Virus record (IMG/VR): IMGVR_UViG_3300045988_154953
Direction: 5' to 3' (one strand)
Source: a virus
Length of the DNA stretch: 64,000 bases
Part shown: positions 1 to 57,359 of the stretch, piece by piece
How the letters are laid out: every line of letters starts with the position of its first letter
Position numbering within the stretch: the stretch's first letter is position 1
Notes under the pieces: generated by a model
What the model was told of the DNA's origin: nothing
The model's database searches: none
Seen by the model: only the letters and a program-made list of their open reading frames with translations
Position numbers and translations under genes: made by a program

Positions 1-24
1 AATATTGTTCCGAATATCGTACTG

Positions 25-33
25 TGTTATAAT
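25..33 (+). promoter_or_regulatory. Extended -10 promoter candidate (TGTTATAAT) for ORF 85..459
   Basis: TGnTATAAT read directly about 50 nt upstream of the ATG; no convincing -35. Confidence 0.3.
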
Positions 34-84
34 ATATTATATGTTTGATCTATAATATATTTTATTGGGGGATTAAATTAAGAA

Positions 85-4040: not shown

Positions 4041-4068
4041 AAAGTAAGAGACTAAATCTCTTATCTAT

Positions 4069-5370: not shown

Positions 5371-5409
5371 ATTATTATTTCTCCTTTTAACTCAAATATT
5401 TTATCTCAT

Positions 5410-10463: not shown

Positions 10464-10479
10464 AATTTAATCACCTCTC

Positions 10480-10956
10480 TTATTTTAATAATTCCATCGC
10501 TTTCTTTTTTATAATTTTTTGTGCTTTTTCATCAAAGCCGCTTTGGATATCTTTATCTACAAGAGTCTTTGGAGGAGTAGAGTTAGCCATATTCCAACTG
10601 CCATGACCATGTTCACCATTTTCAAACATAAATTCAAAAGCTGTATCTGCATATAATGGTTTCCGTTCATATGATGGATAAGGTGGTATTTCAAATCCTG
10701 GATAATCAGACATAGTAGAATTATCAACTCGCAATGTAAGAACATTATTACTTCCAGAAGTTTCTGGCGTATTTGCAATATTAAAGAAATTTGTCGTTCT
10801 TTGATATAATGACGGTGAATAACTGTTATAATAGTCAACCAAAGCTCTATCAACAGACTCTATAAATAACTCATTTATTTCTGGAGCTACTTCATTAGCA
10901 ATATTTTTTTGTAAATGATCTAATTTCTTTATAATCCCAGAAAATCCTTTTCCCAT
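10480..10956 (-). CDS. Virion/tail-associated protein (function unknown)
   Basis: Start set to the second ATG after GGAGGTGA; lies immediately upstream of the tape measure gene. Confidence 0.55.
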   Translation of the reverse strand: MGKGFSGIIKKLDHLQKNIANEVAPEINELFIESVDRALVDYYNSYSPSLYQRTTNFFNIANTPETSGSNNVLTLRVDNSTMSDYPGFEIPPYPSYERKPLYADTAFEFMFENGEHGHGSWNMANSTPPKTLVDKDIQSGFDEKAQKIIKKKAMELLK

Positions 10957-13063: not shown

Positions 13064-13121
13064 ATTATTTTCTCCTTTTAACTCAAATGTTTAAAAAATC
13101 ATATAAAATAGCCAAGTGAAT

Positions 13122-15110: not shown

Positions 15111-15221
15111 GTATTTCTCCTTTTAACTCAAAATTAAAAAAATGGGGTATAACCCGAATAGTGCGATATATACAATTATTTATATACATCAACCGAGTTA
15201 CACCCCTTTCTTAAAAAATCA

Positions 15222-22533: not shown

Positions 22534-24240
22534 TTAATTATGTTTGAATAAATTTCCATATCTGCTTGGTGTATTATCTTTTGAAGGTGCTGCAAATATC
22601 TTTTGATTTACTACAGGTTTTTCTTCTGGTTTACCGTTAAAGGCGAACTGTCCACCACTTGTAATATAATCAGCAAATACTGACTTTAACTCTTTCTCTA
22701 AATCAGTGAGAGAGTAGTTATCCATTTCAGAAACTAATTTTGCGTATGCTTCATTCTTAAAGTTACCCTCTTCATCCTTTTCTGTAAGAACAGAGTATTT
22801 TTTATCAGAAATAATTGCTTCTTTCTGAGCATGAATCTCTGCATTTTGATACTTAGAAAGTTCTTCTTTAATAGCAGCATAATTTGAACGCATATCATTA
22901 ATTTCTGCATACTCCGAATCTGTTAAATACTCTTTATGTAATGCATAACGTTCTCCATCGAAAGCTACATTATCATTTTCTTTTGTATATTTCTGGCCAT
23001 AAATCTTATCTCCACGCCAATTCTCATACACAAAATATGTATCATATACACTACTTATATAATACCAGTCGTCATCTGTGGACTCATATGAACTTAAAAG
23101 GTTGTACAATGCATAACGAATATCATCATGAGAAATTTCAAAGGTACGTGTCATTTTTTCAAAAGTCTGTTCTTCTGGTTCATCAGAAGTCTCACCTTCC
23201 TCTGTTTCGGAAGTGCTTTCATCATCATTTGTATCATCTGTCTCACCTTCATCTCCAGAAGGTTCTGTAGAATCATCCTCAAAGGCTTCTTTAAATTTTG
23301 CCTCTAATTCTTCATCTGACAATTCTGAGTATTCAAATGTTACATCTTCAACAGATATATTATATTTCTTCAGTAACTCCTCAAATTTATTCATTTCTTC
23401 TTCATTTCCTCCTTCCTTAGATGGTATTTGTTGAGCAGAAAATTGCTCTTTATTATTGAAACAAGTAGATTCTAATTTTTCGAGTCTTTCTTGTAGTTCA
23501 ATCATTTTTGATTCATAATTAGAAAACATGCTGTTAGTTTCTGAGCTGAAATCAGATAATTTAATATTGGAACCTTGCATGCCGGGTTGAACAGAATCTC
23601 CCTGTGGTGTTTTCCCCAGAATAGTAACTCCTGAAAACCAAAAATCTTCAATATTTAAGAATTTCTGTTTCGCATCATAACTGAGTTCTCGAATTGAAAG
23701 CTCTACAGATACAAAACATTCACCTTCTCTTTCTAATATTTCGGCAGCCTTAGAATACTCTTCAAAAATATATCCATCAACTTCACAATACGTTTTCTTT
23801 TTGTCTTTATCATAGACTAATTTAGCATTGCAGCTTTCTGGTATAATACCAATAGGATATTCGTCATAAACTAGTTCGCCATCTTCATCTTCATGCATGT
23901 TGTGGCTATAAAATTCCCATTGTCCATCAGGATTCTCATCTGTTACAACTTTATGAATATAACCAAGAATTGGTCTATTACTAAATGATGGAAGAGCAGC
24001 TTCCATTGTATCCTCATCAATATTTGATCCATTTACGTTAAGATTGGTATGACATGATTGTAAATGTACCGGAAGTAATCCTTCTGTATCTTTATTATCT
24101 TTATCAAATTTGACCTGTCCATGAACTTGTACGACTAACGGTTGACCAGATTTTTCTGCGCTAAAATGTGTAGAACGTTTATATTTATTTAAATAAAAAT
24201 CATATAAATCTTCTATAAATAAAAGTTTTTTCTTTGACAT
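22534..24240 (-). CDS. Scaffolding protein candidate (possibly with an N-terminal protease-like domain)
   Basis: 568 aa; highly acidic Glu/Asp/Ser/Thr-rich centre and coiled-coil-like segments; located between portal and capsid genes. Confidence 0.45.
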   Translation of the reverse strand: MSKKKLLFIEDLYDFYLNKYKRSTHFSAEKSGQPLVVQVHGQVKFDKDNKDTEGLLPVHLQSCHTNLNVNGSNIDEDTMEAALPSFSNRPILGYIHKVVTDENPDGQWEFYSHNMHEDEDGELVYDEYPIGIIPESCNAKLVYDKDKKKTYCEVDGYIFEEYSKAAEILEREGECFVSVELSIRELSYDAKQKFLNIEDFWFSGVTILGKTPQGDSVQPGMQGSNIKLSDFSSETNSMFSNYESKMIELQERLEKLESTCFNNKEQFSAQQIPSKEGGNEEEMNKFEELLKKYNISVEDVTFEYSELSDEELEAKFKEAFEDDSTEPSGDEGETDDTNDDESTSETEEGETSDEPEEQTFEKMTRTFEISHDDIRYALYNLLSSYESTDDDWYYISSVYDTYFVYENWRGDKIYGQKYTKENDNVAFDGERYALHKEYLTDSEYAEINDMRSNYAAIKEELSKYQNAEIHAQKEAIISDKKYSVLTEKDEEGNFKNEAYAKLVSEMDNYSLTDLEKELKSVFADYITSGGQFAFNGKPEEKPVVNQKIFAAPSKDNTPSRYGNLFKHN

Positions 24241-24324
24241 TTCTTCTTATTAACCTCCTTCCTCTAAAATTTGGGTATAATAATACCCCATCTAAAAGAT
24301 GAGGTTATTAAGCAATTTATATAA

Positions 24325-24507
24325 TTAGAAACACAACTTATTTGAGTATGTAATTTTACCGGTATCAAATGATAATTTAGTATCTGTGTCATTTATAAAT
24401 GTCCAAACACCGCCACTGCAATCTACCATTTGAAATCCTAAATCTTTTAACTTATTCATTGTTTCTTTATCTGTTGTTTTAATAAATGGGAGAGTACTTT
24501 TTTTCAT
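24325..24507 (-). CDS. Hypothetical small protein
   Basis: 60-aa ORF with GAGG RBS between portal and scaffold genes. Confidence 0.45.
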   Translation of the reverse strand: MKKSTLPFIKTTDKETMNKLKDLGFQMVDCSGGVWTFINDTDTKLSFDTGKITYSNKLCF

Positions 24508-24531
24508 ATCCTTTACCTCGTTCTATATTAT

Positions 24532-26085
24532 TTATCTCCTATTTCGCGATTTGTCACCTTCTGTACTAATCTCCGTATCACTTTTGGTCGGTGCTCCGCC
24601 TTCATCTGTTGCACCACCAGATTGTGTTGATGCAGTTTGTAAAGGTGTAAATCTTTCGTTGAGATTTAATACATCTTTTTCAAGATAATTTAATGCCAAT
24701 GTATCTAATTCACTAAATCCATTTAACGAATTAATGGCCAAAGAGCTAACATACCCATAATTTAAATCTTTTTGCATTGATTCTTTAAACGCATCTTTAG
24801 TATATGCGGATACTTCGAAGAATTTAACTTTTGCTGGATTACTAACAAGATATGAAAGCATACGATTTACCCATCCTTGAACTTGTCCTAATAAACTAGA
24901 AATAGCGAGTTCTGTATCAGCGCGTGTCGCCGCTCGGAAAGCCTCAGCACCTGAAATACTGGATGAGTTGAGTATTTGCGCTCCGCCAGAAGTATTTAAT
25001 ACTTCTTTTGTTGCTTTCTGAATTTTAGTAGTATCAGATGCTTGGTCATCAGAAAATGATAATACATCTAATGGAATAGGAGTGATAACATCACCAACAT
25101 AATCAGGTAATGAATAAGATAATTTTTTATAATATTCTAATGCAGTATTTATATCAACAGCCCAATCATCTGGTATATCTGTTCCATCGATTCTTGGGAG
25201 AGTAGCAACAATCAATTTATATATTTGCTGTGCGTCTGCGACAGCTTGAATATCAGCTAAATCAAGTAAGTTAATTAAATCCAAAAACAAACCACTATAT
25301 GGTGGACATACTGTTTCCCATGACTCTAATCGGTATTTCGTACATAAAGCGTATTCATCTGGCATTTGTTGCCATTTGTTTGAGTTATCTCCACCATAAG
25401 CTGAATACATAGAAGAAAGTGGTTCACCTAAATATTCAATTAAATATTCATATTTTTTGTAATAACTCATATCCACCGCAAACGAAAAATCACCTGTAAA
25501 ATATTTACCAGTAAGCTTACAATATTCTGGTGGAAGTTGAAGTACAAATATTCCTGTTTCATCTATCCAACAACATCCATAATACACATCTTCTATAAAA
25601 TTATTAATAAATACTGACAGAAACTCATGCTGTAAATTCATTCTATCTAACCATTGTAAAGATTCATAATATGACTGTAAAATTGAATCTGGATCATTGT
25701 CTTCTGTTAAACTGAATGGTGGTACAACAGTACGTGCATTTAAATCAAACATTGTAGCATTGTACATAATTAATCTGAAATAGACTTGTGATCTGTAGAA
25801 TAAATATCTGGATAAATTTCGAAGATTATTTTCATTAGAAGAGATGTTCTGAAGATATGATATAACAGTATCTTTGTTATAAGAAGATAGTGTTGTCTGT
25901 CTGGTTGTTTTTGTTACATCTCGAATTTGTTTAAATGCTTGATTAGTTTTCTCTGAATTCTTAGCATACCATTCCTTCATTTCTGCTACAGTATGTTTGG
26001 GAGTAGATATAGAATTATTTGAGGTTGTAGAAGGTGCACTTTCTGTCACCTTTGGTTTATTCTTGCTTCCCTTTGGTCGTCCCAT
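24532..26085 (-). CDS. Portal protein candidate
   Basis: 517-aa ORF immediately downstream of the large terminase, AGGAGGTG RBS; call is positional. Confidence 0.65.
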   Translation of the reverse strand: MGRPKGSKNKPKVTESAPSTTSNNSISTPKHTVAEMKEWYAKNSEKTNQAFKQIRDVTKTTRQTTLSSYNKDTVISYLQNISSNENNLRNLSRYLFYRSQVYFRLIMYNATMFDLNARTVVPPFSLTEDNDPDSILQSYYESLQWLDRMNLQHEFLSVFINNFIEDVYYGCCWIDETGIFVLQLPPEYCKLTGKYFTGDFSFAVDMSYYKKYEYLIEYLGEPLSSMYSAYGGDNSNKWQQMPDEYALCTKYRLESWETVCPPYSGLFLDLINLLDLADIQAVADAQQIYKLIVATLPRIDGTDIPDDWAVDINTALEYYKKLSYSLPDYVGDVITPIPLDVLSFSDDQASDTTKIQKATKEVLNTSGGAQILNSSSISGAEAFRAATRADTELAISSLLGQVQGWVNRMLSYLVSNPAKVKFFEVSAYTKDAFKESMQKDLNYGYVSSLAINSLNGFSELDTLALNYLEKDVLNLNERFTPLQTASTQSGGATDEGGAPTKSDTEISTEGDKSRNRR

Positions 26086-26245
26086 GGGCGCACCTCCTTT
26101 TATTTTAAATTGTTTTGTAATTAAAAAATCATTTGTTTATTTTTACATATACTTGACTATTGACATGTATTGTGATATGATGTATATGTGAAAGTTTATG
26201 CAAATCTAGATTGAAATTGATAAAATGAGAGAATTAGATTAAGGA

Positions 26246-28294
26246 TTAGATATATGATTTACGTTTCGGTGTTCTGATTGGGAGGAGAGATGCAAGATTA
26301 GTAGAAGGTTTACGTTTTCTATTCATAATAGATTTTCTACGTTCATCCATAAGAGCTTTTGCGGCTAATGCGGCTGTATACGCACGGTCGTCATGCATTT
26401 TATTCGCTTTTTCTGGTGTTAGCTCAAAAGAATCCTTACCAGATTCTCTTTTCTTTCGAACCATATTTACAAGTTCTTCTTTTAAAGCATCTATGTTTAC
26501 TAATGCCAATTCATCTTGCCAATCTAGTTTAATCACCTTAGTTTTTACAGATTGTACATGATTTAACTCTTCATCTAATTGTCTATCAAATTCTTCTTTT
26601 GATAATTTTAATCGTTTTAATCTATTAGTGATTTTTTCTTTTTCAGAATTCAATTTCTTTTCATCCACATCAAAAACTGTCAAATTTCCTTTTCCATCAT
26701 ATGGAGCAGTGAAGCTAATTTTGTCCTGATTCATTAATTCTATTAAGGCTTCATACATTTCAGATTTATATGCAGTAGGAGATATTAGATGAACTTTATC
26801 TACTGCATTAGGAAATTTTTTTACATAGTCAGCTGAATACTCTTTATCAATTAATCCTCTGTGTGTAATTCCCGCCTTGTCTGTCCAGTCCGGCATAAGA
26901 TAATCTGCGATATTTACACCGGAACCACCACTACCTGCATCAATAAAAACACCAACAATATTCCCATATGCATCTGCACCACCATTGTAATCAAGTATAA
27001 CTTGTTTTAAATATTCAACCTGATCTGGCGTTTGCATTGGTGATTTGGTTTTCTTTCCAACATCCACTAAATTAATACAATTAACTAATCGCATTCTTTT
27101 ATCAATAGATTCATCTGGCATTATATAATCATAAATTTCCCCAACCAATATAACGCTATTATCTCTACTTCTAGCAGGATCGTAACATATAACGAAACGT
27201 TTATCTCCTGTATCATTATATAGAAGAGGTTTTCTTATTTCTTCATTACGTGTAATAACACCTCTTTTTATAATCGCATTTGCACCAGCAGAAGTAGTAA
27301 ATTGACAATAATATTCTCGTCTGGCCTTTTCAGGATTTGTCCTCATTTCTGATTGAACAGTTGAACGAGACAGAAGAGGAGCAATCAATTCGCCATGTAA
27401 AGTAGGTTTAAATGCTAATTCACAATCTATATGTAATACACAAAAATCAGGATCGCCCATAATTTGCTTCTTTGCAAAATCTCGATATAAGGCAAAAAAT
27501 TTTGTATCTGTGCTTGAAGCAGAACTTATATAAATTTTCTGATATGGCATATCTTGTGGAAAACAACGCTGTCTAATAGGGTCAATTGATTTACCACTTT
27601 CATCTTTACCTGTTTTCATACTTCTGTTAACAGCAGCAAAAGCACCATAAACATTCATCATTTCTTCCGATAAGAAACCACTTTCATCAAAAACCACTGA
27701 GCCACGGTAACCTCGTTTGGCATCTATATTAGAATTCAACGTTTGTGTCATAGCACCATTATATAAAGAATAATTAAATCCATTAGACGAATGTGAGAAA
27801 CCATCACCTGCTGCATTTTTTATCTCAATTTCATTTTTAAATACTTTGCCTGTAGAACCTGTGAAAGTATCAATGTTATCATTTGCAAGACGCTCCAAAG
27901 TAGTAAATGTTTGCTCTGCCTGTGAACCACTACCACTAGCAATATATGTCCAGTTATTGTTAAAGCACATACCTTTAGACATAATAGATAAATCGATCAC
28001 TGTTGATTTTCCCCATCCACGAGTACATACTAATAATGAATTAGGACATATCCATGTTTTTTGGACTGCTAATGTCTGGCTATCAAGAAGTTCTATATTA
28101 AACATCAAATCAATGAATCGTACTGGATTGCATTGAAAGTATTTTTGCATTTTAGCTATTTCCAGCAAAGATTCAATTTTTCTTGTAGACATAGGATAAA
28201 CAATCGGTTTTACAAAAATTCCATAATCACTATAAAAATCTTTATCATAATCTAAACTAAAATCATCATTATATGGAAGTATTATCTGACTCAT
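26246..28294 (-). CDS. terL: Terminase large subunit
   Basis: Walker A-like CTRGWGKST, Walker B-like VVFDESGF, C-terminal nuclease-like region; start re-set to MSQIILP after GAGGAGG. Confidence 0.85.
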   Translation of the reverse strand: MSQIILPYNDDFSLDYDKDFYSDYGIFVKPIVYPMSTRKIESLLEIAKMQKYFQCNPVRFIDLMFNIELLDSQTLAVQKTWICPNSLLVCTRGWGKSTVIDLSIMSKGMCFNNNWTYIASGSGSQAEQTFTTLERLANDNIDTFTGSTGKVFKNEIEIKNAAGDGFSHSSNGFNYSLYNGAMTQTLNSNIDAKRGYRGSVVFDESGFLSEEMMNVYGAFAAVNRSMKTGKDESGKSIDPIRQRCFPQDMPYQKIYISSASSTDTKFFALYRDFAKKQIMGDPDFCVLHIDCELAFKPTLHGELIAPLLSRSTVQSEMRTNPEKARREYYCQFTTSAGANAIIKRGVITRNEEIRKPLLYNDTGDKRFVICYDPARSRDNSVILVGEIYDYIMPDESIDKRMRLVNCINLVDVGKKTKSPMQTPDQVEYLKQVILDYNGGADAYGNIVGVFIDAGSGGSGVNIADYLMPDWTDKAGITHRGLIDKEYSADYVKKFPNAVDKVHLISPTAYKSEMYEALIELMNQDKISFTAPYDGKGNLTVFDVDEKKLNSEKEKITNRLKRLKLSKEEFDRQLDEELNHVQSVKTKVIKLDWQDELALVNIDALKEELVNMVRKKRESGKDSFELTPEKANKMHDDRAYTAALAAKALMDERRKSIMNRKRKPSTNLASLLPIRTPKRKSYI

Positions 28295-29579
28295 CAGAAC
28301 CAACCTCCTCAATGTTTTCATCCTCTGATTCATCGGAAAATACAGAATATAATTGTTTTAAATCCCTTAAATTAGGTTTTGTATCTATATTTTGTTCTTC
28401 GATGTAATCTTTCAAATCTATATTTTCTTGCAACAAAATACGATTTATTTCTTTATAAGAATCACGTTCTTTTCGAAGTACTTGATTATCTTGACGCATT
28501 TCAGCAACCATATCTGACCAATCAGATTCATCCAAAGCTAATTGCTTCATTATAGACGCATCACTTATTTCCTGAACTTGCTGCATGCCTCTACAAGTTG
28601 CTATATCAAATCCGTTAACACGGCCATCTCTAAGATTTAAGTCTTTTATTTTCTTAATTTTACCTGTCCAAGTGTTTTCGCCTTTCTTAGCATTTTTATT
28701 ATTTAATAAAGAAATACAACTTTCTTTGGCCAAACTTGTAATGGTACTTGTTAATTTTTGTTTACTGTCTTGGAGAGATTTGATTGTTGCAGAATTTTTA
28801 TCAAGATTTTTGTAATCGGACATTAATTGAGCAATATTATTATCAATTTTAGAAATTTGTAAGAATCCACGAACAATAGAAATAGCAGAAGCATTACGCA
28901 TCATATCATCATTTTCATCACCACCGGCATCCAATAATCCTAATAATTGAGAATACAAAAATGGTTGATCTCCGATAGATTCATGTTCAAAAGGATCGTA
29001 TCCCAACAATCGTGTAACATCTTTTTTGTTTTTTGTGTAATCGTCATATGTATCTATTCCAGCATGTTCTTCTATAATTGTTTTTGAATCTTTTTCGTCT
29101 TCGTACACAACTTTCTCTTTAAACATGTCAGAATCTTCCCATGTCATACCAATATAATTCACCATAGCAACATTTTTTATATAGGCATTCCATGGATTAT
29201 GTTTGACTTTCCCAGCAACTAAATTTTCAGATTCTTGTACACTTGAATCCCATAAACTATATAAAAATGGTTTATTTAATAACTTAAGAGCAGCGCATAC
29301 AGAATCTTTTGTTGGTTCATGTTCTTCACCATTTTTATCTACTCTAAGTGCAATTTTTCGTACACATTCCACGCAAATTGGTGTTACACCAGTTTTATTA
29401 TTTGGATCTGTACTTACATAAAATTTTCCTTTATCTTTTAATGTATCGCAACATTGACACCTTGAACTATTTTTTAATTTCTCTAAATCTGATTTTAATT
29501 TTTCGTTTTCATATTTCAGTTGAGCAGCTGTTAATTTCTTAGGTTGCTCAGATTTTGCTGTAGCCAAATTAACAGCCAC
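28269..29579 (-). CDS. Zinc-finger/coiled-coil protein upstream of terL (small terminase role possible but unsupported)
   Basis: 436-aa ORF; CQCC...CVEC motifs; exact start uncertain (GTG abuts the RBS, TTG 4 codons downstream). Confidence 0.5.
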   Translation of the reverse strand: MAVNLATAKSEQPKKLTAAQLKYENEKLKSDLEKLKNSSRCQCCDTLKDKGKFYVSTDPNNKTGVTPICVECVRKIALRVDKNGEEHEPTKDSVCAALKLLNKPFLYSLWDSSVQESENLVAGKVKHNPWNAYIKNVAMVNYIGMTWEDSDMFKEKVVYEDEKDSKTIIEEHAGIDTYDDYTKNKKDVTRLLGYDPFEHESIGDQPFLYSQLLGLLDAGGDENDDMMRNASAISIVRGFLQISKIDNNIAQLMSDYKNLDKNSATIKSLQDSKQKLTSTITSLAKESCISLLNNKNAKKGENTWTGKIKKIKDLNLRDGRVNGFDIATCRGMQQVQEISDASIMKQLALDESDWSDMVAEMRQDNQVLRKERDSYKEINRILLQENIDLKDYIEEQNIDTKPNLRDLKQLYSVFSDESEDENIEEVGSDESDNTSI

Positions 29580-33810: not shown

Positions 33811-33880
33811 AGATTTTATCTCCTTTTAATTCAATTTTATTTTTATCTAATTGTTTATCTTTAGAGAATTTTACACACGA

Positions 33881-37380: not shown

Positions 37381-37493
37381 TACACCATCGTTATAATCTC
37401 TTCGATATTCATCTAACCGAGAGATACCTATCACCGATTCAATTTTATAAATATTACATACCAACTAATCGCCAAATTAATTATAGCTGTAAA

Positions 37494-37567
37494 TGGGTAT
37501 AAGTGGACTTGAACCACCGACTCACGATTTAAAAGACCGTTACTCTATCCAACTGAGTTACATACCC
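37494..37567 (-). tRNA. tRNA-Lys (anticodon TTT)
   Basis: Hand-folded: acceptor GGGTATG/TATACCC, D arm ACTC..GAGT, anticodon loop CTTTTAA, T arm GGTGG-TTCAAGT-CCACT. Confidence 0.85.
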
Positions 37568-38409
37568 AAAATAAAAAATCCCATGCATTACACATGAGAC
37601 TTTCATTCCTATTAGGCTGAGATATTTGACCTAACACGTTACCATCTGCTGCCGTTGGAGACAGTTCATCACACAGCCGATTAAACTGTAGGTAACAACG
37701 ACACTGATTTTGTGAAAATCAGCAAAAATCTTACAATGAGGTATTATAGATTTCCTTTTTGCACATCGTTCCTTGCGAGATTCAAAGATTGCAGTCTTTT
37801 ACGGTTGCACATATTCGTACTTCCTTACATGTCGCTTTGCGAGCTTCATGCATGTTCATATTACAGAACAATAAGTCGTTTATTTCCTCAAAGTTGCACA
37901 CACTTTTGCTTGTTAATATAAAATTATTTGAAATTAATGCTTTTAAATCTTTATTTAATTTTTCAATCATAAGAAAGTATGTACGTATTATGGATGATGA
38001 GGTGTACATTCGACCATTCGTGACTTTTGATCACGACCCAATCATCACCATCCTGGTCACTTTGCGAGTTTCCTTTAGACTATTCCAACTATCTTTCGAT
38101 TTGAGTCAGAAATGTCCAATTAATACAGCACTTGCTCTTGCGGAGTTTGCACCATAAAACAATCTTACCGTCCACCCATTTCTGAGTTTATTTATAGTAC
38201 TTTTTACATAATACCCGACCAACCATCATCCTCAGCGGATGCCCCAAGATTTTAGGTTGGAACGTTAGTAAGTATTGGTTTTCCGTCACCCTCTTTCGAG
38301 AGGCACTTTAGCACGAACACTAAGAATGCTTTATACGTGTCACCACGCTTATTTTCAGTCTAATATAGACTCTGGAACCGAAACCGTCCCAGCCTACAAA
38401 GTAGGAGAG
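37568..38409 (-). other. About 840-nt ORF-free, G+C-richer, hairpin-rich segment between tRNA-Lys and tRNA-Met (large ncRNA candidate)
   Basis: Only short RBS-less ORFs on either strand; hairpins include 37706..37720, 38227..38241 and 38290..38303; no tRNA-type T-loops. Confidence 0.4.
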
Positions 38410-38484
38410 TAGCGAGAGTTGGATTTGAACCAACATATGACACAGAGAATGAATCTGCCGAGTTACCAAATACTCTATCTCGCA
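38410..38484 (-). tRNA. tRNA-Met (anticodon CAT; could be the Ile2 type)
   Basis: Hand-folded: D arm GAGT..ACTC, anticodon stem GCAGA/TCTGT with loop TTCATTC, T arm GTTGG-TTCAAAT-CCAAC; terminal acceptor pair mismatched, so ends are uncertain. Confidence 0.75.
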
Positions 38485-38486
38485 AA

Positions 38487-38580
38487 CGAAGAGAGCAGGA
38501 TTTGAACCTGCGGTACATAAACTTAATTTGTACGTCTGATTAGCAGTCAGATACGATAAACCAAACTCCGTCATCTCTTC
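38487..38580 (-). tRNA. tRNA-Ser (anticodon GCT), long variable arm
   Basis: Hand-folded: acceptor GAAGAGA/TCTCTTC, anticodon loop CTGCTAA, variable arm GTACA..TGTAC, T arm GCAGG-TTCAAAT-CCTGC. Confidence 0.85.
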
Positions 38581-39593: not shown

Positions 39594-39623
39594 GTGGAAT
39601 TAACCTATGACAGTTAATCCCAC
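39594..39623 (-). terminator. Intrinsic terminator after the HU gene
   Basis: GTGGGATTAAC..GTTAATTCCAC (10 of 11 bp) followed by a T-rich tract on the minus strand. Confidence 0.55.
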
Positions 39624-39664: not shown

Positions 39665-39940
39665 TTAACCTTTAATATATTCCTTAACAATAGTACCGAA
39701 CTTACACTTTGGTGCCATATGAGCTGGTACAACAACAGCTTCACCTGTCTGAGGATTTCTTGCTGTTCTTTCTGCAACTTCCTTACCACTAAGTGTTACT
39801 GAGTCAATAATCTTTACGGACTCACCATTCTTCATTGCTTCATAAACAACTGACTGAACAGCGTCTAAAACTTCTCTTGCATCCTTCTGTGTAATTTTTG
39901 CTTCTGCGGCTACTGCCTTAATAAATTCTGATTTTGTCAT
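39665..39940 (-). CDS. HU/IHF-family DNA-binding protein
   Basis: MTKSEFIKAVAAEA...ARNPQTGEAVVVPAHMAPKFK-like arm signature; start set after AAAGGAGAA. Confidence 0.85.
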   Translation of the reverse strand: MTKSEFIKAVAAEAKITQKDAREVLDAVQSVVYEAMKNGESVKIIDSVTLSGKEVAERTARNPQTGEAVVVPAHMAPKCKFGTIVKEYIKG

Positions 39941-40263
39941 TTTAAATTTTCTCCTTTTTCTCAAAATATTTTTATTGTCTCTTCATGACAGAAGAGTACT
40001 TTTACATAATAAAAAAGCCACATATAATGCCTGTGGCAAGGGCATAAAACAATATTGCAATTCCGTACTTATTCACGCATTGGAAATAGCGTGGATGGAC
40101 AACTTTTCTTCAAACAACTATTTAATCACATGTGTAATATTTTTTACCTAAAGGATTAACGTAGTGAAAAGTATTTCCCTCATACTACACACGAATTTTA
40201 ATATTAAAAAATTCCTTATTTTATATTGGATTTATTGTGATGAAATAAAATATTTACGGAAAA

Positions 40264-43044
40264 TTATTGAACTTTTTTTGAAAAATTAGACAAAAACAAA
40301 TCTTTATTCATTTTATATAGAAGTTTCAGAACATTTCTTGTATATTTCGTATATTGTTTAAACTCTTTTAAATTTACACCAACACCTGAACTCATACCTA
40401 AAGATGTTTCGATTAATCGATTAATAGTTTTTAGATTTTTTATTTTAATGGCTCTTAATTTTTCAATTATACGATCATTTTCGGCCTCAACTCTTATCAT
40501 TCTATCTTCTGAACTTTTTGTGTTATGTGTAATATCATAGATATTTTCATTATATTCTTCAGCCAATTGACGTATTTTCGTCATTTGTTTATGATTCGCA
40601 GTTCCATTTATTTTAATAAAAAATTTCTCTGTCGGAATAGTATTGGAACTAGAAATATTTTTTATTTTTTTTAAGGAATTTTGTAAATCATTCATTGGGC
40701 AAATCAAATCACTATTAATACGTAATGATAATTGATCTTTTTCTTTTTGAATTTGTTCATACGGAATCTCTTTACCATTTTTCGTATGCTTAATCTTTTT
40801 TGTATACTTCATGAATTCTGGAAAGTCTTCTTTTGTAACAATTTCCTTTTTTATAACCTCGCCATTTTCATCCTCATATTCTATGTATTTTATAACTTTG
40901 TTGTTTTTCATAGATGGAAGCTTTTTTATACGTTTTATTTCTTGAATACCATCAACTTCATATTCTCGTTTACAACCATCTATTATAATTTGAGCAATAA
41001 CTGATAAAATAACAAAATTATCGTATAACTCATTCAGTTCCTCTTCGTCTGGATTATCTTTTTGTTTCTCAGTCCAATAATATGTCATGGCCAATTGAGC
41101 AAGATTACTAGATTCGCCAATACCAATTCTGGATTTAGCAAATTTATTATCCATACGAGCATATTCTTTCAAAGTATTATTATAAGTAATACCACTTTCT
41201 TTTAACTTATTAACAATTGTTGGGAATTCTTCATATGCTTTTTTAGCATTTCGAACCATCACCGGATGATTTGTTACAAAGAAAAAATCACTATCAAAAT
41301 CACATCCGTTAGCACGATCTTGGATATCTGTATGGATACAATTTACAGCTAATATATTAGGGCTAAATTCAAAATATTTTTTCATTAAATCGCTATGATG
41401 ATTATGTAAATAACAAATGTTATTAGGACTATTGTGGGGATTTCTTATACCACATAAGTATTCGTCATCGTTAAAGCGTGTAGTATAGCATTGAATTGTT
41501 CCAGGTTCAACATTCAATGTTGGATCATTCTCCCAATTTTCGTCAACAGTATAGAGTAGTAGTGCATATGGATTTCCACAAATCGTTAAATTATCAGCGT
41601 TAACAGTTATTTTACCGGTTCTCAATTTATCCACATACGTTTTAATAATTTGTCTCTTTTCGTATCTAAACCATGTGCTATTAGCAAAATCATTGTTGTG
41701 GTCATATAAATCAGCAAGCATTTCATAATGATTTATTGTATTCTTATTTTTTCGTAAAAACTTTTCAAAATAATCATTATCAGTTTTTAATTTATTCACA
41801 TATTGAATGCTCGTATTAGCTAATTCATCAATATCTTCTTTGCTACATGGAAGAGTATTAACCATTTGATAACTCATTTGCTGTACATCATCTAATTTAC
41901 TAGGATGATCAGTTTTTACAATACCAAAAAATGACCCATCGGCATTTACTCTTTGACACCAATATTCATATGCATCTCTAGGAGTTTCACCCATCAACGA
42001 CATGAATTTCTTCCATTTAATAGCATTATCAGTTGTAATCATTTTAATATCTTTTACATAATGCCATTTACCAAACATATCTTGAATTTGATAGGTATTA
42101 TAATCATATTGGTTTTTTATACACCAATCTCTAAGAAATTTTTGAATATAAGTTTTGAAAGCACATGCTTTGAAAAAATGATTTCTTAAAAGTGCCATGC
42201 CATTAACAAATTTTGGAAGTGTAGATGCTTCAATTAACGCCATACCATCCCATAAAGTATTTTTGACTTTAATTGTATCATTATTAACAACACATTTTTT
42301 TTGAGTTTTCTCATTAACAGTATATTCTTCTGCTTGAACAATTTTGGCAGCAGTTTGAAAAAAACTATCTTGATCTTTAAGAATAAGTATATCTTCAACA
42401 GGAAGATAAAACTTTTCGACAATTGTACTTGTTGTTAATGGTGCATAAGCTGACATTTCAACAATTTTAGCATCATTTTTAGGAAGTTTCTTACCAAGTC
42501 CCATTGTCAGCCAATCGTATGCTTTTTTATACAATTTGCTATTTATAAACATTGCCTGACCAACTTTAGCTTTTGAAGAATTACGATATAACATTTTATA
42601 ATGAATTGTTTGTTCTGTTATTTTTTCATCTTTCTTTGTGTTATATTTTATAGACACACCATTTTCATAAAAATCTTCACGAATTTCATCTCTTGACTTT
42701 TTAATATAATTATCTCTATTAGACTCTATTTTAGCGTATAAATTACGGATTCTATTTTTAGATTCTTCATCAAGTTTTTCGTCATTTTCATAATCACCAA
42801 ATTGTTTATTTAAGTGTTTGATTTCCTCATCATATGTTCTTGATCCAAAATCAAAATCTAAACAAATAATATCTCTAGTGCTTTTTTTATTCCAATCATT
42901 TAGTCCATTATCTTTTATATAATCATAAAACAAACTTTTACTAAACATTGCATCTGTGTATTCATATCTATCTCTAACACCTTGATTATATCCAAATAAC
43001 GTACCAGCCTTTATATTTTTTATTTTTAATCCATATTTTGACAT
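40264..43044 (-). CDS. Two-barrel RNA polymerase-like protein (eukaryotic RdRP / YonO-type DbDxD signature)
   Basis: GIRNPHNSPNNICYL ...(33 aa)... DRANGCDFDSDFFFVTNHP parallels the RdRP signature NPCLHPGD...SGSDLDGDLYFVSWD. Confidence 0.55.
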   Translation of the reverse strand: MSKYGLKIKNIKAGTLFGYNQGVRDRYEYTDAMFSKSLFYDYIKDNGLNDWNKKSTRDIICLDFDFGSRTYDEEIKHLNKQFGDYENDEKLDEESKNRIRNLYAKIESNRDNYIKKSRDEIREDFYENGVSIKYNTKKDEKITEQTIHYKMLYRNSSKAKVGQAMFINSKLYKKAYDWLTMGLGKKLPKNDAKIVEMSAYAPLTTSTIVEKFYLPVEDILILKDQDSFFQTAAKIVQAEEYTVNEKTQKKCVVNNDTIKVKNTLWDGMALIEASTLPKFVNGMALLRNHFFKACAFKTYIQKFLRDWCIKNQYDYNTYQIQDMFGKWHYVKDIKMITTDNAIKWKKFMSLMGETPRDAYEYWCQRVNADGSFFGIVKTDHPSKLDDVQQMSYQMVNTLPCSKEDIDELANTSIQYVNKLKTDNDYFEKFLRKNKNTINHYEMLADLYDHNNDFANSTWFRYEKRQIIKTYVDKLRTGKITVNADNLTICGNPYALLLYTVDENWENDPTLNVEPGTIQCYTTRFNDDEYLCGIRNPHNSPNNICYLHNHHSDLMKKYFEFSPNILAVNCIHTDIQDRANGCDFDSDFFFVTNHPVMVRNAKKAYEEFPTIVNKLKESGITYNNTLKEYARMDNKFAKSRIGIGESSNLAQLAMTYYWTEKQKDNPDEEELNELYDNFVILSVIAQIIIDGCKREYEVDGIQEIKRIKKLPSMKNNKVIKYIEYEDENGEVIKKEIVTKEDFPEFMKYTKKIKHTKNGKEIPYEQIQKEKDQLSLRINSDLICPMNDLQNSLKKIKNISSSNTIPTEKFFIKINGTANHKQMTKIRQLAEEYNENIYDITHNTKSSEDRMIRVEAENDRIIEKLRAIKIKNLKTINRLIETSLGMSSGVGVNLKEFKQYTKYTRNVLKLLYKMNKDLFLSNFSKKVQ

Positions 43045-43059
43045 CTACCTTATCACCTT

Positions 43060-44805
43060 CTAACTCATTTGTACTTGATAACCATATATGCTATTCAATT
43101 GTCTTTTCTTCGGCTTCTTCTGTTTTTTCAACTTCTTCAATTTCTTTTGATACTCTGTTAATTCTTTTTCTAATTTTTTCTTCTCTAAATAATTACGACA
43201 GTTTTTAATCTGTATCTTTAATTTTCGAATATACTTTTTTGTATCCTCTTCAGTCGTATCAACTTCATGTTCTGATTCAGTTAATTCTGCAGCTAATCCC
43301 GTATCTACAAGTCGTTGATATTCTTCGTTTACGGTGAATGCTAATTCAGGATTGAAATCAAGATTTCTTCCATTAATATATTCATTTGTTGATTGTACCG
43401 GTATATTTACATAATTATTTAGCATCCGACTAATGTTTTCTTCAAATGAGGTAACATTTTGTTTAAATTCAACCATACTCATTTGATCCTTTTTGATTTT
43501 CGTCAATCGTTCATTATAATATTCTCTTAATTCATCAGAGAATGTTTTCATTAAATCATTCCATTGAATCAACTCTATTTCTTCTATATTAATAGACTTA
43601 ACATAGTCAATAATATCCTGAACGAATTCCAATGTAAGAATAAACGTCTCATACTTCAACGTGCTACGAAAACATCTAAACTCAATTGTTTCTGAGTGTT
43701 GTAAATTTAAAGCAACTCGTTTACCATTATTTTTGTATTTACCATATAAATCAACAATACTTGTTTCATTCTTACCATTCCCAACAAATTGACTATAGAA
43801 ATTATTTCTCCTGGCAATAACACAAATTTCATCATTAAATTTTTCAAGGATATATAAAATCTTAGAGATAGTAAGCTGCTGCATTAACTCTGTTTTACCA
43901 AGATACTTTCTATCAGCGTGTATATGTAAACCGGCACTATTTGCATCATGACCTTTGTATCCTTGTTTATCCAAATATTCAAACATCTGTTTGTAATTTA
44001 AAGTCTTATGATATTCTAAGCTGCATGGCATTGTATCTAATTCGATTTGAACTGTACTGTCACTTGTACTATAAATTAAATTCTCATCATCAGTATCCGA
44101 TCCATTCATGATTTGAATACATTTCTTTACAACACTTTCACGATTATCTTTCTCATTCTCATTCGTGTTTTCAGCAACCTCGATCTCAGCACCGAGTAGA
44201 AGAGGAGTGTCTTCAGTATCTAACTTATGATGAACATATTTCGGTTTATAATTATATGGATGAATATATTTTTTTATGTTAGAATGACCAAAACATTCGT
44301 ATAATAAATCAACATTAAAATAAGAATTATTACTAAATAATGTACCTGCACTACTAAAATAATTCTGTCTGCCAGTTATATTTCCATTATTCATATTTGG
44401 TTCTAATGAAGAACTTGGCACAACACATTCTCCTAATGGTAATCTTCTTTGTCTAATTAAACGTTGATAAACTCTATTCAAACTAGTTGTACTTAAATTG
44501 GAAAGATTATAGATTCTTATGGCACTTAAATAACTATCAAAATTACGAGGATGCTCACTTATACATCCATTTTCATCAAAAAATGTTTCATTTATATGAA
44601 AATTGTAACTTCTCCGTATAAAATTGTTAAAACTTTCTATATTGAACGAGTATACTTTATCAAGTTGATAATCATTAGTTCTAGTTACAATACGTATATT
44701 ATTACCAAGTCTTTCTGTATGTATAATTAACGCACCGTCGATAGTATAAGGATCCTGCATACTAATTATATGTCCATTAAGTTGAATATCTGGTATAAGT
44801 CTCAT
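43060..44805 (-). CDS. Amidoligase_2-like (glutamine-synthetase-fold) domain protein with Lys-rich coiled-coil tail
   Basis: LLLGAEIEV, DSTVQIELDTMP, AGLHIHAD and ALNLQHSETIEFRCFRSTL in the order expected for the amidoligase family; start set to MRLIPD after AAAGGAGAAA. Confidence 0.55.
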   Translation of the reverse strand: MRLIPDIQLNGHIISMQDPYTIDGALIIHTERLGNNIRIVTRTNDYQLDKVYSFNIESFNNFIRRSYNFHINETFFDENGCISEHPRNFDSYLSAIRIYNLSNLSTTSLNRVYQRLIRQRRLPLGECVVPSSSLEPNMNNGNITGRQNYFSSAGTLFSNNSYFNVDLLYECFGHSNIKKYIHPYNYKPKYVHHKLDTEDTPLLLGAEIEVAENTNENEKDNRESVVKKCIQIMNGSDTDDENLIYSTSDSTVQIELDTMPCSLEYHKTLNYKQMFEYLDKQGYKGHDANSAGLHIHADRKYLGKTELMQQLTISKILYILEKFNDEICVIARRNNFYSQFVGNGKNETSIVDLYGKYKNNGKRVALNLQHSETIEFRCFRSTLKYETFILTLEFVQDIIDYVKSINIEEIELIQWNDLMKTFSDELREYYNERLTKIKKDQMSMVEFKQNVTSFEENISRMLNNYVNIPVQSTNEYINGRNLDFNPELAFTVNEEYQRLVDTGLAAELTESEHEVDTTEEDTKKYIRKLKIQIKNCRNYLEKKKLEKELTEYQKKLKKLKKQKKPKKRQLNSIYGYQVQMS

Positions 44806-44816
44806 TTGTTTCTCCT

Positions 44817-45311
44817 TTAATCCCATAAATCCCAAAAGAATAAATTAAACAGTTTCATAAAAGCATTTTTATTTTGATTCATCACATTACAAATCCGTTT
44901 ATAATCATCCATAGTTCTGCAATTAAAATCATAGTCATCATCATATATATTCTTACCATATAGAACTTTTTCAACATAATCTTCATCCATCATTTGTAGA
45001 TGATAAATCATAGTATCTAAAACCATATTTGTTTGTTCACTTGTTAGAAATAAGCTATTAAAACTATATATATATTCTTCCGGCACATTAAATAAAGTAA
45101 AACGATCATTTTTGAGTCGCTTAAATATTTCTATTGTTCGTATTCGAAATATTGAATCATAATTCCACAGTTCTCTATAATCGTATCCTAACCAGGCACG
45201 CTGCCATGCATAATAAATATCTCTAAATATATTTTCGATTTTATATTTTAAACTACAATTTTTGTATTGAGTCCTATATTCTTTCAAAGAACCTTTTAAT
45301 CCTGATGACAT
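44817..45311 (-). CDS. Hypothetical protein
   Basis: 164-aa ORF, start abuts the upstream stop. Confidence 0.5.
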   Translation of the reverse strand: MSSGLKGSLKEYRTQYKNCSLKYKIENIFRDIYYAWQRAWLGYDYRELWNYDSIFRIRTIEIFKRLKNDRFTLFNVPEEYIYSFNSLFLTSEQTNMVLDTMIYHLQMMDEDYVEKVLYGKNIYDDDYDFNCRTMDDYKRICNVMNQNKNAFMKLFNLFFWDLWD

Positions 45312-48534: not shown

Positions 48535-48553
48535 AAATTATATTGATTAGTTT
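48535..48553 (-). promoter_or_regulatory. 19-nt conserved motif, copy a (minus sense AAACTAATCAATATAATTT)
   Basis: Identical 12-mer core AAACTAATCAAT shared with four other copies; 33 nt upstream of the start at 48501. Confidence 0.5.
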
Positions 48554-50873: not shown

Positions 50874-50892
50874 AAATTATATTGATTAGTTT
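50874..50892 (-). promoter_or_regulatory. 19-nt conserved motif, copy b
   Basis: Minus sense AAACTAATCAATATAATTT, in the control region and oriented toward the minus arm. Confidence 0.5.
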
Positions 50893-50945
50893 GAAAATTG
50901 TAAATCTATTTATATAATACTACTATTTACCTTATTTGTCAATCA

Positions 50946-50964
50946 AAATTAAATTGATTAGTTT
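50946..50964 (-). promoter_or_regulatory. 19-nt conserved motif, copy c
   Basis: Minus sense AAACTAATCAATTTAATTT, oriented toward the minus arm. Confidence 0.5.
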
Positions 50965-51785
50965 AGACGGATAAGTTGGTTTGATAAGATGTAATACATT
51001 AAAAATCCATATAAATCTCATGCAAAATTAGATATTTAAATCAATGATTGCATTAATGAAATGATAAAGATATTAAAAAATATGAGTATTCTTATGAAAT
51101 TTACTCTAATCAAAAAAATTTTTAGTATGAATATTTTTAACTGATCAAAATGAGTCGTTTAAAATTTAGATAATTATAGTAATTGGGTGGAATGATAAAG
51201 AAAATTATTTCAATTTTAGATATTTAATTTGCAAGCTGGAAGAATGAGATATTGTATAGATAATATGTAATTTTTCGATATTTAATCCGATAAATTGGTT
51301 TTTAATAGGAATTATTAAAATGTTATAGGAATTATATGAAGAATTTTGAGTCAGTGTGTAAATTGACCAGCTACAGCATTTGGATCAAAAGCAAACACAC
51401 GTTCTGGTTTTTACTACCCCCTATCCATAAAAGAACATATGTTCTATTAAAACTGGTAAAAATTATAGTTTTTCCCAATTCTAATTCAATTCAATACAAT
51501 TTGCTATATATTGTTTAATATGTTTTTGTTTTGAATACAATAGATATTAAAATTTTTAAATTACTTTTCAAATTGACTATATAAATGAAATTTTTTAGTC
51601 AATTCCTTTTTAAAATGATATATTATTTTAATTTTTCACACAATATCGTACAATTATGCATCTGGTCATATTAATTTGTTCAATTTAATCAACATTAATA
51701 ATACCAGAACACCAGATACAACATTAATCAACATGATATCTATTTATAGATAAAATGTCTATTAAAAATATTTTTAAATTTATTG

Positions 51786-51814
51786 TTGACAATCACGGAA
51801 AACCGTGATAATAT
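51786..51814 (+). promoter_or_regulatory. Sigma-70-type promoter P1 with embedded 18-bp palindromic operator
   Basis: TTGACA (51786..51791), 17-nt spacer, TAATAT (51809..51814); spacer is ATCACGGAAAACCGTGAT. Confidence 0.7.
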
Positions 51815-51903
51815 ATAGACATCCCAAACTGGATAACAATTTTATATTGCTTTTGATTGCAGTCAACAATAAATAGTAGCTAAAGAAAAATTACAAAAAG
51901 TTG

Positions 51904-51932
51904 TTGACAATCACGGAAAACCGTGATACAAT
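51904..51932 (+). promoter_or_regulatory. Sigma-70-type promoter P2 with an identical operator
   Basis: TTGACA (51904..51909), 17-nt spacer, TACAAT (51927..51932); same palindrome at 51910..51927. Confidence 0.7.
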
Positions 51933-51934
51933 CA

Positions 51935-52656
51935 AAACAAGTTAAGAACTGGTCAATAGTTCTTACGTCATTATATCACATCTGACCAGTACTTGACAAC
52001 CATTGGATAAAATCCTATCCGATGGTAGGCGGTAAGCCTCTGCCATGAAACACTGGTATACTTTCTGCTTGGTAGGTCGTAAAACATCTACCGCAATAAA
52101 GGTGTTGTTCTTTGACAACTTAATAGCCGTTTCATCTTTTTTAAGATGATAATACTTGTCTCGGTATGACAAAAGACAAGGAATTCCATGAGTAGGGATA
52201 AACGAAAATGGTACGGGAATGTTATGCTTACGGGTGTAGTATGTCTCGGACACTAGAAATAGTGGGCGTGGTGTAGCCGACAAGCTGGCCAATGCAATTC
52301 GCTGGTAATAGGTGATAGCAATTAGGGCAATGTTATACACAAAAAGTCTGCAAAATTCACGGTGGTAAATGGGCGGTTGTAGTCTTGTAATATTGCAAGC
52401 CCCGCAAAAAGTGATAAAAATAATCCGTGAAAAGTAGTAGAAACTTTTGTAAATAATAACATTGACTATCGGTGATAGGTCAATACATCTTTCTAATAGC
52501 TCTTTTTTTGAGAAGCTATGGGCGCTTAAAAACGAATAACATTAAATGTAATGTTACCGTTGACGGTTCAAAGTCCGTATGAGAAAAACAGATGACATTT
52601 TAATTTTATTTTCTGCCGATGTCCCCGGCTAGAATAGGGATAGAAAGGGGCATATT
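51935..52656 (+). other. About 720-nt ORF-poor, G+C-richer leader or ncRNA downstream of P2
   Basis: No plus-strand ORF of 60 aa or more; hairpins at 51943..51965, 52461..52484 and 52538..52555; the first CDS starts at 52657. Confidence 0.45.
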
Positions 52657-57022: not shown

Positions 57023-57029
57023 TAGAATT

Positions 57030-57048
57030 AAACTAATCAATTTAATTT
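57030..57048 (+). promoter_or_regulatory. 19-nt conserved motif, copy d
   Basis: AAACTAATCAATTTAATTT, 32 nt upstream of the start at 57081. Confidence 0.5.
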
Positions 57049-57080: not shown

Positions 57081-57347
57081 ATGAAAGAAGAAGTTTACGA
57101 AGAGATTGAAGAAATTTCAGATAGGGAAATTTCAGATAGTGATATGTTTTTATTTATTGCTAAAATTGCGTTGTTACTCAGTGCAGTTATTATTGGTGCG
57201 ATTGCATATGGAATCACATATTGTGATTTTACACCAATTGTAATCATGGGATTCTTTGTTTTCCCAGTATTTCTTGGTGGTGTGAAATTAGTTTGGGAGT
57301 ATATAAAAGTAAATCTTTTTGAAGACGGGAAGGAACAACCAAACTAA
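57081..57347 (+). CDS. Small membrane protein (acidic N-terminus, two hydrophobic helices)
   Basis: Start set after AAAGGAGA; FLFIAKIALLLSAVIIGAIAYGI and IVIMGFFVFPVFLGGV. Confidence 0.55.
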   Translation: MKEEVYEEIEEISDREISDSDMFLFIAKIALLLSAVIIGAIAYGITYCDFTPIVIMGFFVFPVFLGGVKLVWEYIKVNLFEDGKEQPN

Positions 57348-57359
57348 TCAATATAATTT
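57341..57359 (+). promoter_or_regulatory. 19-nt conserved motif, copy e
   Basis: AAACTAATCAATATAATTT overlapping the stop codon of ORF 57081..57347; 81 nt upstream of the start at 57441. Confidence 0.5.

Follow-up and report, generated by a model that had tools for sequence, protein, structure and literature searches.

In this study, we describe a gene for a single-chain RNA polymerase (RNAP) in the IMG/VR virus record IMGVR_UViG_3300045988_154953, of which a stretch of 64,000 nucleotides was analysed (hereafter, the window). The window derives from a tailed phage carrying tape measure, terminase, portal and endolysin genes, specifically a distant SPbeta-like siphophage of gut Firmicutes (guanine plus cytosine content ~30%; related contigs mostly 90-180 kb). 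The polymerase open reading frame (ORF) encodes 926 amino acids (aa) and begins with an ATG codon, which is preceded by an AAGG/GGTGA ribosome-binding region and lies 15 nt past the stop codon of an upstream gene for a 591-aa protein (Table 1). A preliminary description of this DNA had assigned the ORF to the polymerases of the RNA-dependent RNA polymerase (RdRP)/YonO type. Translation confirmed the ORF and the segment quoted there (YLCGIRNPHNSPNNICYLHNHH...NILAVNCIHTDIQDRANGCDFDSDFFFVTNHP), which corresponds to residues 529-594.

Downstream of the polymerase gene, an un-annotated element of ~190 nt starts 66 nt past the stop codon and carries a conserved sequence, box A (AAATTCGTGTGTAGTATGAGGG, 40177-40198). 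The next gene encodes an HU-type DNA-binding protein and is followed by a terminator-like hairpin (39594-39623). Six tRNA genes on the minus strand lie further downstream, together with a GOLLD-like RNA.

Table 1. Positions of the polymerase gene, its catalytic residues and associated features in the window
Feature	Position	Strand	Basis
YonO-family single-subunit two-barrel RNA polymerase gene	40264..43044	-	ORF, phrog_8308, hhalign, AlphaFold2, Foldseek
Barrel-1 (beta-like) catalytic residues D266, R287, K292 (D...R-x4-K)	42169..42249	-	translation checked, alignment
RNPHNSP, barrel-2 R534 and P536 (= Rpb1 R446/P448, QDE-1 R962/P964)	41425..41445	-	translation checked
DFDSD (residues 582-586), DxDxD Mg-binding triad D582/D584/D586	41287..41301	-	translation checked, alignment
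Structured element (box A, multi-helix RNA, terminal hairpin); candidate promoter and putative late-unit leader	40011..40198	-	conservation, covariation
HU-type DNA-binding protein gene, SPbeta yonN counterpart, next gene downstream of the polymerase gene	39665..39940	-	phrog_379
tRNA-Ser, tRNA-Met, GOLLD-like RNA, tRNA-Lys module; probable early part of the polymerase-transcribed unit	37493..38580	-	ARAGORN/Rfam
Packaging and structural late genes collinear with SPbeta yonG, yonF, yonE, yonD; expected polymerase targets	22534..29579	-	tblastn, PHROGs
19-mer AAACTAATCAATWTAATTT, five copies	48535-48553, 50874-50892, 50946-50964, 57030-57048, 57341-57359	-, -, -, +, +	exact matches

The protein belongs to the YonO family

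The protein matched phrog_8308, a family labelled 'unknown function', over residues 87-922 (E 2.8e-90). SPbeta YonO, taken from AF020713, matched the same family over its full length (1220 bits), indicating that phrog_8308 is the YonO family. In a direct BLASTP comparison, the two proteins shared 21% identity over 471 residues (E 5e-6), and hhalign of a profile of 46 diverged relatives against YonO gave a probability of 98.8% (E 1.2e-16, 511 columns). This alignment pairs DFDSD with DNDGD of YonO and RNPHNSP with RSPHLFR, and places the barrel-1 residues on 'TDG' and 'VRLPWVK'. The DNDGD aspartate triad is essential in YonO, where the 3D>3N mutant abolishes catalysis (PMC5467207). A protein of Enterocloster phage PMBT24 annotated as 'RNA-dependent RNA polymerase' was found to belong to the same family (99.9%, E 6.6e-33; DFDSD aligned to DFDGD); the PMBT24 paper does not discuss it.

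Neither the protein by itself nor the 46-sequence profile gave a meaningful match in Pfam, NCBIfam or PDB sequences; the only matches, weak coiled-coil-like ones to haemagglutinin HA2 (E ~0.06), were dismissed as chance. Since YonO itself has no match in Pfam, NCBIfam or PDB sequences, these negative results are expected and carry no weight. Specifically, the Pfam RdRP family PF05183 was matched neither by the query at E <= 10 nor by the 46 relatives at E <= 0.1, and the query contains no Pfam RNAP domain, RNA_pol_Rpb1/Rpb2 and RNA_pol (PF00940) included. The profile searches proposed in the preliminary description thus led to the YonO family, with no primase or right-hand polymerase family among the results. 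We place the protein in both the YonO family and the two-barrel superfamily; by sequence it is not a Pfam RdRP, and it is not T7-like.

The family is far larger than the literature states. A word-indexed search yielded >2,700 proteins, an exhaustive search yielded at least 1,476 clusters at 50% identity, and a relative of the polymerase is encoded on at least 544 IMG/VR contigs, compared with the ~50 proteins listed in 2010 (PMC2919709). One SPbeta study describes YonO as 'observed only with SPbeta' (10.1101/2021.11.22.469490). YonO-like genes were earlier noted in a few phages (PMC2919709, PMC7824862), so the enzyme type is known and not a new kind. Among minimal single-chain relatives of the universal multisubunit RNAPs, YonO alone has been studied, and the window places an enzyme of its type in an abundant lineage of large human-gut phages.

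In one relative (L086, MT837385), a group I intron at 5276-5525 scored 77.2 bits, exceeding the gathering score, and coincides with the end of the tblastn match to the polymerase (query residue 684), so its YonO-like gene appears to be interrupted by a self-splicing intron. The same record carries a RAGATH-18 RNA at 10421-10481.

Catalytic residues and predicted structure

A lone DxDxD motif is weak evidence, being present in 27% of shuffles of the polymerase protein. The whole pattern D-(15..35)-R-x4-K ... R-x-P-(35..55)-DxDxD occurred in just 0.18% of the shuffles, indicating that it is not due to chance. We aligned 126 cluster representatives with 27-77% identity to the query, and found D266, R287, K292, R534, P536, D584 and D586 in 126/126 and D582 in 125/126. 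This conservation and the pairing with YonO DNDGD agree with the earlier assignment of DFDSD to the metal-binding loop. The eight positions are exactly the set that is invariant across all two-barrel RNAPs listed by Ruprich-Robert and Thuriaux (PMC2919709). Judged from its sequence, the protein thus appears to hold the complete two-barrel active site by which the superfamily is recognised, with D/R/K in barrel 1 and R-x-P and DxDxD in barrel 2.

The AlphaFold2 model, built with 85 diverse sequences, reached a predicted local distance difference test score (pLDDT) of 94.0 and a predicted template modelling score of 0.90; a run with 18 close homologs only gave a pLDDT of 52.8. In a Foldseek search of the PDB, the best 21 matches comprised nothing but RDR2 from plants and QDE-1 from fungi (E 8e-13 to 3e-8, probability 1.00), with template modelling (TM) scores of 0.36-0.46 over ~850-1070 alignment columns at ~10% identity. 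The next match was the virion RNAP gp66 of the crAss-like phage phi14:2 (E 5.5e-4, TM 0.27), and all 22 significant PDB matches are two-barrel RNAPs. The largest subunits of multisubunit RNAPs (Rpb1-type) appeared as weak matches (E ~0.08), and no primase, right-hand polymerase or other fold was found in this search. In a viral structure library, the top match was a phage protein of metagenomic origin that carries the label 'RNA dependent RNA polymerase' (E 2.5e-50, TM 0.74).

According to the model, the fold would contain a pair of double-psi beta-barrels forming the active site, and the likeness to eukaryotic RdRPs appears solely at the level of the fold. The structural check suggested beforehand therefore gave a high-scoring model whose Foldseek matches are two-barrel RNAPs, and together with the YonO profile matches it supports the earlier view of a single-subunit, non-T7-like, two-barrel polymerase of the YonO/RdRP type. 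The eukaryotic-type RdRP signature proposed at the same time holds for the fold and the eight residues; it does not extend to sequence families, as no Pfam RdRP threshold was reached and the nearest relative is the DNA-dependent YonO. The deep alignment and the high-confidence model are provided for a family without a solved structure.

The polymerase gene heads the late region

The window is collinear with the late region of SPbeta, in the order polymerase, HU/yonN, yonG, terminase (yonF), portal (yonE) and yonD. The HU gene product matched phrog_379 (E 6.6e-26) and is 37% identical to YonN (E 2e-17); yonO and yonN are adjacent in SPbeta as well. In PMBT24, a histone-like gene lies ~0.9 kb past the polymerase gene, and in three further relatives (L003-L005) a Bac_DNA_binding gene follows it. 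By tblastn of SPbeta proteins, we located YonG at 29103-29462 (E 1.6e-14) and YonD at 22957-23175 (E 7e-7), while the terminase and portal genes were identified by PHROG matches. A YonV homolog (43% identity) is encoded upstream in the window, and the contigs of relatives encode the Pfam domains YonV_C, YonJ_N/CC, YonG_N and YpsA. Even in distant members, the polymerase gene is found directly upstream of and co-oriented with late genes, namely tail genes in L089 and terminase-portal-capsid genes in L092. The genomic position of the polymerase gene thus matches SPbeta, PMBT24, L089 and L092.

YonO is a DNA-dependent RNAP that is needed for 37 late genes in SPbeta, where it initiates one long late operon at a single start site downstream of yonN (PMC5467207). 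We conclude, with a probability of about 0.85, that this ORF specifies a catalytically intact YonO-family enzyme, a single chain of ~107 kDa with two double-psi beta-barrels and one active site, whose role is most likely DNA-templated late transcription. This reading is carried by the homology to YonO, the conserved catalytic residues, the model's two-barrel fold and the synteny. The DNA template, the specificity for and timing of late genes, and the processivity would follow from the biochemistry and genetics of YonO.

We propose that the host sigma-A polymerase would first transcribe the leftward early/middle operon from ~50.9 kb, including the polymerase gene. The new enzyme, using DNA as template, would then initiate just past its own gene, for which box A at 40177-40198 is the best candidate site. 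Processive transcription would continue through the co-oriented HU gene, a lysin gene and the tRNA-GOLLD-tRNA module, and would cover the genes for packaging, head, tail and lysis over ~35 kb. The 'host-independent transcription' anticipated in the preliminary description is thus overstated: by the SPbeta precedent it would concern late genes only, and the polymerase's own gene first needs the host polymerase.

Several observations weigh against this role. The identity to YonO is just ~21%, so the template preference and the target genes are extrapolated. The top structural matches have RNA-dependent activity. The candidate promoter is separated from the late genes by two intrinsic-terminator-like hairpins (40017-40037 followed by T6, and 39594-39623). 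Finally, the extended box A is not common to SPbeta, which has the 8-nt core alone, and is missing 3' of the gene in three more distant relatives.

The RNA-dependent activity of the structural matches raises the alternative that the protein is an RdRP copying or amplifying phage RNAs, such as the adjacent ornate RNAs (GOLLD, and ROOL in a relative; see below). Cellular RdRPs (RDR2, QDE-1) are its best structural matches, PMBT24 and metagenomic relatives are annotated as 'RNA-dependent RNA polymerase', and large structured RNA genes often adjoin the polymerase gene. QDE-1 is reported to be active on both RNA and DNA templates (PMC9508822). However, YonO, the sole characterised member and by far the nearest in sequence, is DNA-dependent and required for late-gene transcription (PMC5467207), whereas Pfam RdRP was unmatched by the query and all 46 relatives. 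The fixed position of the gene at the head of the late module also suits a transcriptase, and the labels in the databases seem to have been carried over automatically on the basis of similar folds or profiles. We therefore regard an RdRP function as highly improbable and the 'RNA-dependent' label of the relatives as probably wrong, which corrects a widespread automatic annotation.

Comparison with other RNA polymerases

The query and YonO share a family match over nearly the whole length, a single chain with both barrels, the conserved aspartate triad, R-x-P and barrel-1 D/R/K, an HU-type gene that follows, and a collinear late module headed by the polymerase gene. They differ in sequence (~21% identity) and in length (926 aa in the query, 839 aa in YonO), with a variable N-terminal region of ~140 residues. 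The query phage has a gut Firmicute as host and carries a tRNA-GOLLD-tRNA module, whereas SPbeta infects Bacillus and has a ~1.2 kb untranslated region with a DUF3800-VIII motif.

QDE-1 and RDR2 (PF05183) share the eight invariant residues with near-identical spacing; the QDE-1 equivalents are D709/R738/K743 and R962/P964/D1007/D1009/D1011 (PMC2919709). Unlike them, the query has no sequence-profile match to PF05183 or PDB sequences, is phage-encoded, and would be DNA-templated by its homology to YonO. Gp66 of phi14:2 (PDB 6VR4), a significant fold match, is likewise a phage-encoded two-barrel RNAP with a DFDxD motif, but it is a domain of a virion-packaged protein of ~2,200 residues and serves early genes, whereas the query is free-standing and heads late genes. 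Multisubunit beta'/beta enzymes (bacterial, archaeal, Pol II, and the split RNAPs of jumbo phages) have DxDxD and R-x-P in one barrel and basic residues and an aspartate in the other (PMC2919709). Their fold match to the query is marginal, and the query lacks Pfam Rpb1/Rpb2 domains and holds both barrels in one chain. YonO-like enzymes are distinguished by the absence of most domains found in multisubunit RNAPs, such as the trigger loop and the flap/SBHM. T7/N4-type RNAPs are also single-subunit phage enzymes that take over part of the transcription programme, but they have an unrelated right-hand fold, with no sequence or structure match to the query.

A structured element downstream of the polymerase gene

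We found the box A consensus, GTWATATG(G)AGGG, 46-98 nt after the polymerase stop codon in 28/30 non-redundant related loci. Its core in the window, TATGAGGG, is located at 40177-40184. In the relatives (L006-L085), the element is ~140-190 nt long and falls into two sequence classes with the same architecture. Helix 1 begins at the G-run right after TAT, and the 3' end is formed by a hairpin (40017-40037) with T6 at 40011-40016. For the window's sequence class, RNAalifold gave 41 pairs with 97.1% of cells paired. Changes on both sides were found for 17 pairs, compared with 10.6 +/- 1.8 in shuffles (0/500) and 1-4 with slid partners, in an alignment of six sequences only, from which the structure was also derived. 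No Rfam family matched the element. A position weight matrix built without the window detected just one site in the whole window (24.5 bits; no other above 12), and TATG(G)AGGG occurs once in the window.

The SPbeta start site was reported as B. subtilis 168 coordinate 2225998. The primer had no exact match in representative genomes. The start site is therefore confined no more narrowly than to the 244-bp amplicon delimited by the primer-extension and sequencing-ladder primers, which must contain it. Within 50 kb, TATGAGGG occurs at just two sites, and one of them, at L002 10442-10435 or AF020713 60434-60441, falls inside this amplicon, ~85-110 nt upstream of the extension primer. L086, L087, L088 and PMBT24 all lack the exact box downstream of the polymerase gene; in PMBT24, the box occurs only between terminase and portal. 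As the extended matrix also misses the SPbeta site, box A as a universal YonO promoter is unsupported. A match of the matrix at 23926 in SPbeta (L002) is merely a ribosome-binding site. We rejected the possibility that box A opens a small ORF (ATG GAG GGA...): the encoded peptide is not retained from one class to the other, no ribosome-binding site lies upstream, and the conservation is accounted for by base-pair covariation.

Box A is a better promoter candidate than the 19-mer described below, and it may mark the transcription start site of the polymerase, although this is less likely than not. Rather than a promoter, the element at 40011-40198 could be a 3'-untranslated element or terminator region belonging to the polymerase mRNA, or else a separate small RNA transcribed by the host enzyme. 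We give this non-promoter explanation about an even chance. It accounts for the conservation by an RNA structure with compensatory changes, for the terminator-like hairpin at the end of the element, and for the lack of the extended box in SPbeta and distant relatives. It fits less well with the unpaired GTWATAT box just 5' of helix 1, which is among the best-conserved parts, and with the terminator-like hairpin that several relatives have between the polymerase stop codon and the box (read by eye). Furthermore, a sigma-A -10 hexamer on the box is incompatible with a transcript containing helix 1, and the TATGAGGG core lies inside the SPbeta amplicon with the mapped YonO start.

Two further sites contain the core. 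PMBT24 (L001, 12924-12956, +) and SPbeta (L002, 38753, -) both have GTGTGGCAATTA, a gap of 9-10 nt, and then TATGAGGG, although their host genera differ; the site lies between terminase and portal in PMBT24 and antisense within yoqJ in SPbeta. This pair could be a second form of YonO-type promoter, or a coincidence.

In the late region of the window, another 19-mer, TTTGAGTTAAAAGGAGAAA, has three exact copies (5378-5396, 13069-13087 and 15114-15132, all minus strand) and a weaker copy at 33817-33835, where 0.09 copies are expected even with 3 mismatches. It includes a ribosome-binding site; the copy at 13069-13087, which was the one checked, ends 5 nt short of the ATG at 13063. Ending ~5 nt from the start codon, it was ruled out as a promoter with a useful leader, and it may be a site of translational control or RNA processing.

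tRNAs and ornate RNAs downstream of the polymerase gene

The 840-nt gap between the tRNA-Met and tRNA-Lys genes (37569-38408, minus strand) has a folding z-score of -6.0. It matches the full GOLLD model RF02032 at 37614-38053 with 89.8 bits (E 1.4e-23), below the gathering score of 150, and is best called a divergent GOLLD-like RNA. At the same position, GOLLD was found above the gathering score in L005 (188.6 bits) and in L088 (172.6 bits), whose polymerase is 26% identical, and L086, whose polymerase is 46% identical, has a ROOL RNA instead (271.5 bits).

We surveyed 75 related viral loci, many of them near-duplicates. Co-oriented downstream tRNAs were present in 69/75 and a co-oriented HU gene in 52/75, and 40 of the 75 have a GOLLD-like RNA starting 0.44-1.7 kb past the polymerase gene. 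The copy in the window is tied by nhmmer to 18 of these loci. The linkage to tRNAs, GOLLD or ROOL is not universal, as six diverse metagenomic loci have none of them (three are too short to judge). SPbeta instead has the untranslated region mentioned above, in which the DUF3800-VIII RNA lies in the yonN-yonK gap (L002, 9410-9475, minus strand; 47.5 bits, gathering score 40.2). It is probably part of the published 'unannotated non-coding RNA' downstream of the YonO start. A further RNA, a type-P1 twister ribozyme match near threshold (58.9 bits, gathering score 67.2), lies in the early region of L005 (2422-2490, minus strand).

GOLLD and ROOL are phage-borne and located near tRNA islands, and GOLLD rises during lysis (PMC12286853). 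This rise would fit transcription by a late polymerase, but is not proof of it. Our literature search found no paper naming YonO together with GOLLD. It is conceivable, if rather doubtful, that YonO-type enzymes start at the GTWATAT|G(G)AGGG box after their own gene and make the leader, the tRNA island and GOLLD/ROOL as their first late products. If so, box A would provide the first promoter consensus for any single-subunit two-barrel RNAP, and the enzyme making the GOLLD and ROOL RNAs would be identified. The promoter/leader element and the GOLLD/ROOL linkage are two testable leads.

A 19-mer repeat in the early/middle region

The preliminary description had noted a 19-nt motif found five times and saw in the polymerase a rationale for it. 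We confirmed five exact copies of AAACTAATCAATWTAATTT, a number reached in 0/100 shuffles even with 3 mismatches. All five are intergenic and sense to local transcription, and their flanks are not conserved. They occur to either side of the divergence point, within the early/middle region only (48.5-57.4 kb); three of the five are upstream of the polymerase gene, and none precedes late genes. Their position relative to sigma-A-like hexamers varies: one copy provides the -10 of TTTACA-17-TATAAT (50876-50904), another lies just upstream of TTGACA-17-TATTAT (-35 at 50942), and a third just past a -10 at 57028. In this AT-rich DNA, such hexamers show no enrichment relative to shuffles. The 19-mer was not found in related phages.

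SPbeta has a comparable private intergenic repeat, SPBRE, which is the operator of the master repressor MrpR and is also present in the yonP promoter, directly upstream of yonO (PMC10516654). On this precedent, the 19-mer would serve as an operator or early-promoter element of the SPBRE kind. A phage regulator would bind it, the host sigma-A polymerase would read it, and it would control the early/middle operons including the polymerase operon. The location and orientation of the copies suit this function, copies overlap or adjoin 11-of-12 sigma-A-like promoters heading the leftward unit, and helix-turn-helix/Cro-type regulators are encoded nearby. On the other hand, tblastn found no MrpR/YopR homolog in the window, which is less than the whole genome, the motif is not palindromic, and the hexamers lack enrichment. 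The earlier suggestion of a promoter recognised by the polymerase itself draws on a contiguous, perfectly conserved, intergenic motif oriented with transcription, with no conserved -35, which is private to this phage like many single-subunit RNAP promoters; no sigma factor was found among the 27 early/middle ORFs of the window. Yet YonO has a single start site, downstream of yonN (PMC5467207), and no 19-mer copy stands at the start of the late genes. Given the early-only location, the variable hexamer placement and the SPBRE precedent, we slightly favour the operator or early-promoter function and consider recognition by the polymerase unlikely; the polymerase does not account for the repeat as had been supposed.

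Two copies of a near-consensus sigma-A promoter lie at 51783-51821 and 51901-51939 (plus strand), with TTGACA, 17 nt, and TAATAT or TACAAT. Their spacer is palindromic (ATCACGGAAAACCGTGAT) and is probably an operator at the divergent control region.

Other genes in the window

The 591-aa gene that adjoins the polymerase gene upstream (43060-44835, minus strand) belongs to phrog_16683, whose function is unassigned, and its product has a weak match to Amidoligase_2 (PF12224, E 4.9e-5, 23.7 bits; cut-off 22). A ToxN toxin gene was identified at 3357-3899 on the minus strand (Pfam PF13958, E 2.7e-42). It adjoins three exact 34-nt tandem repeats at 3940-4041 (CTATTAAAACGATTTTTTACATGCTTCGTAACAT) that resemble a ToxI-type antitoxin RNA array, and the two would form a phage-borne type III toxin-antitoxin (abortive infection) module.

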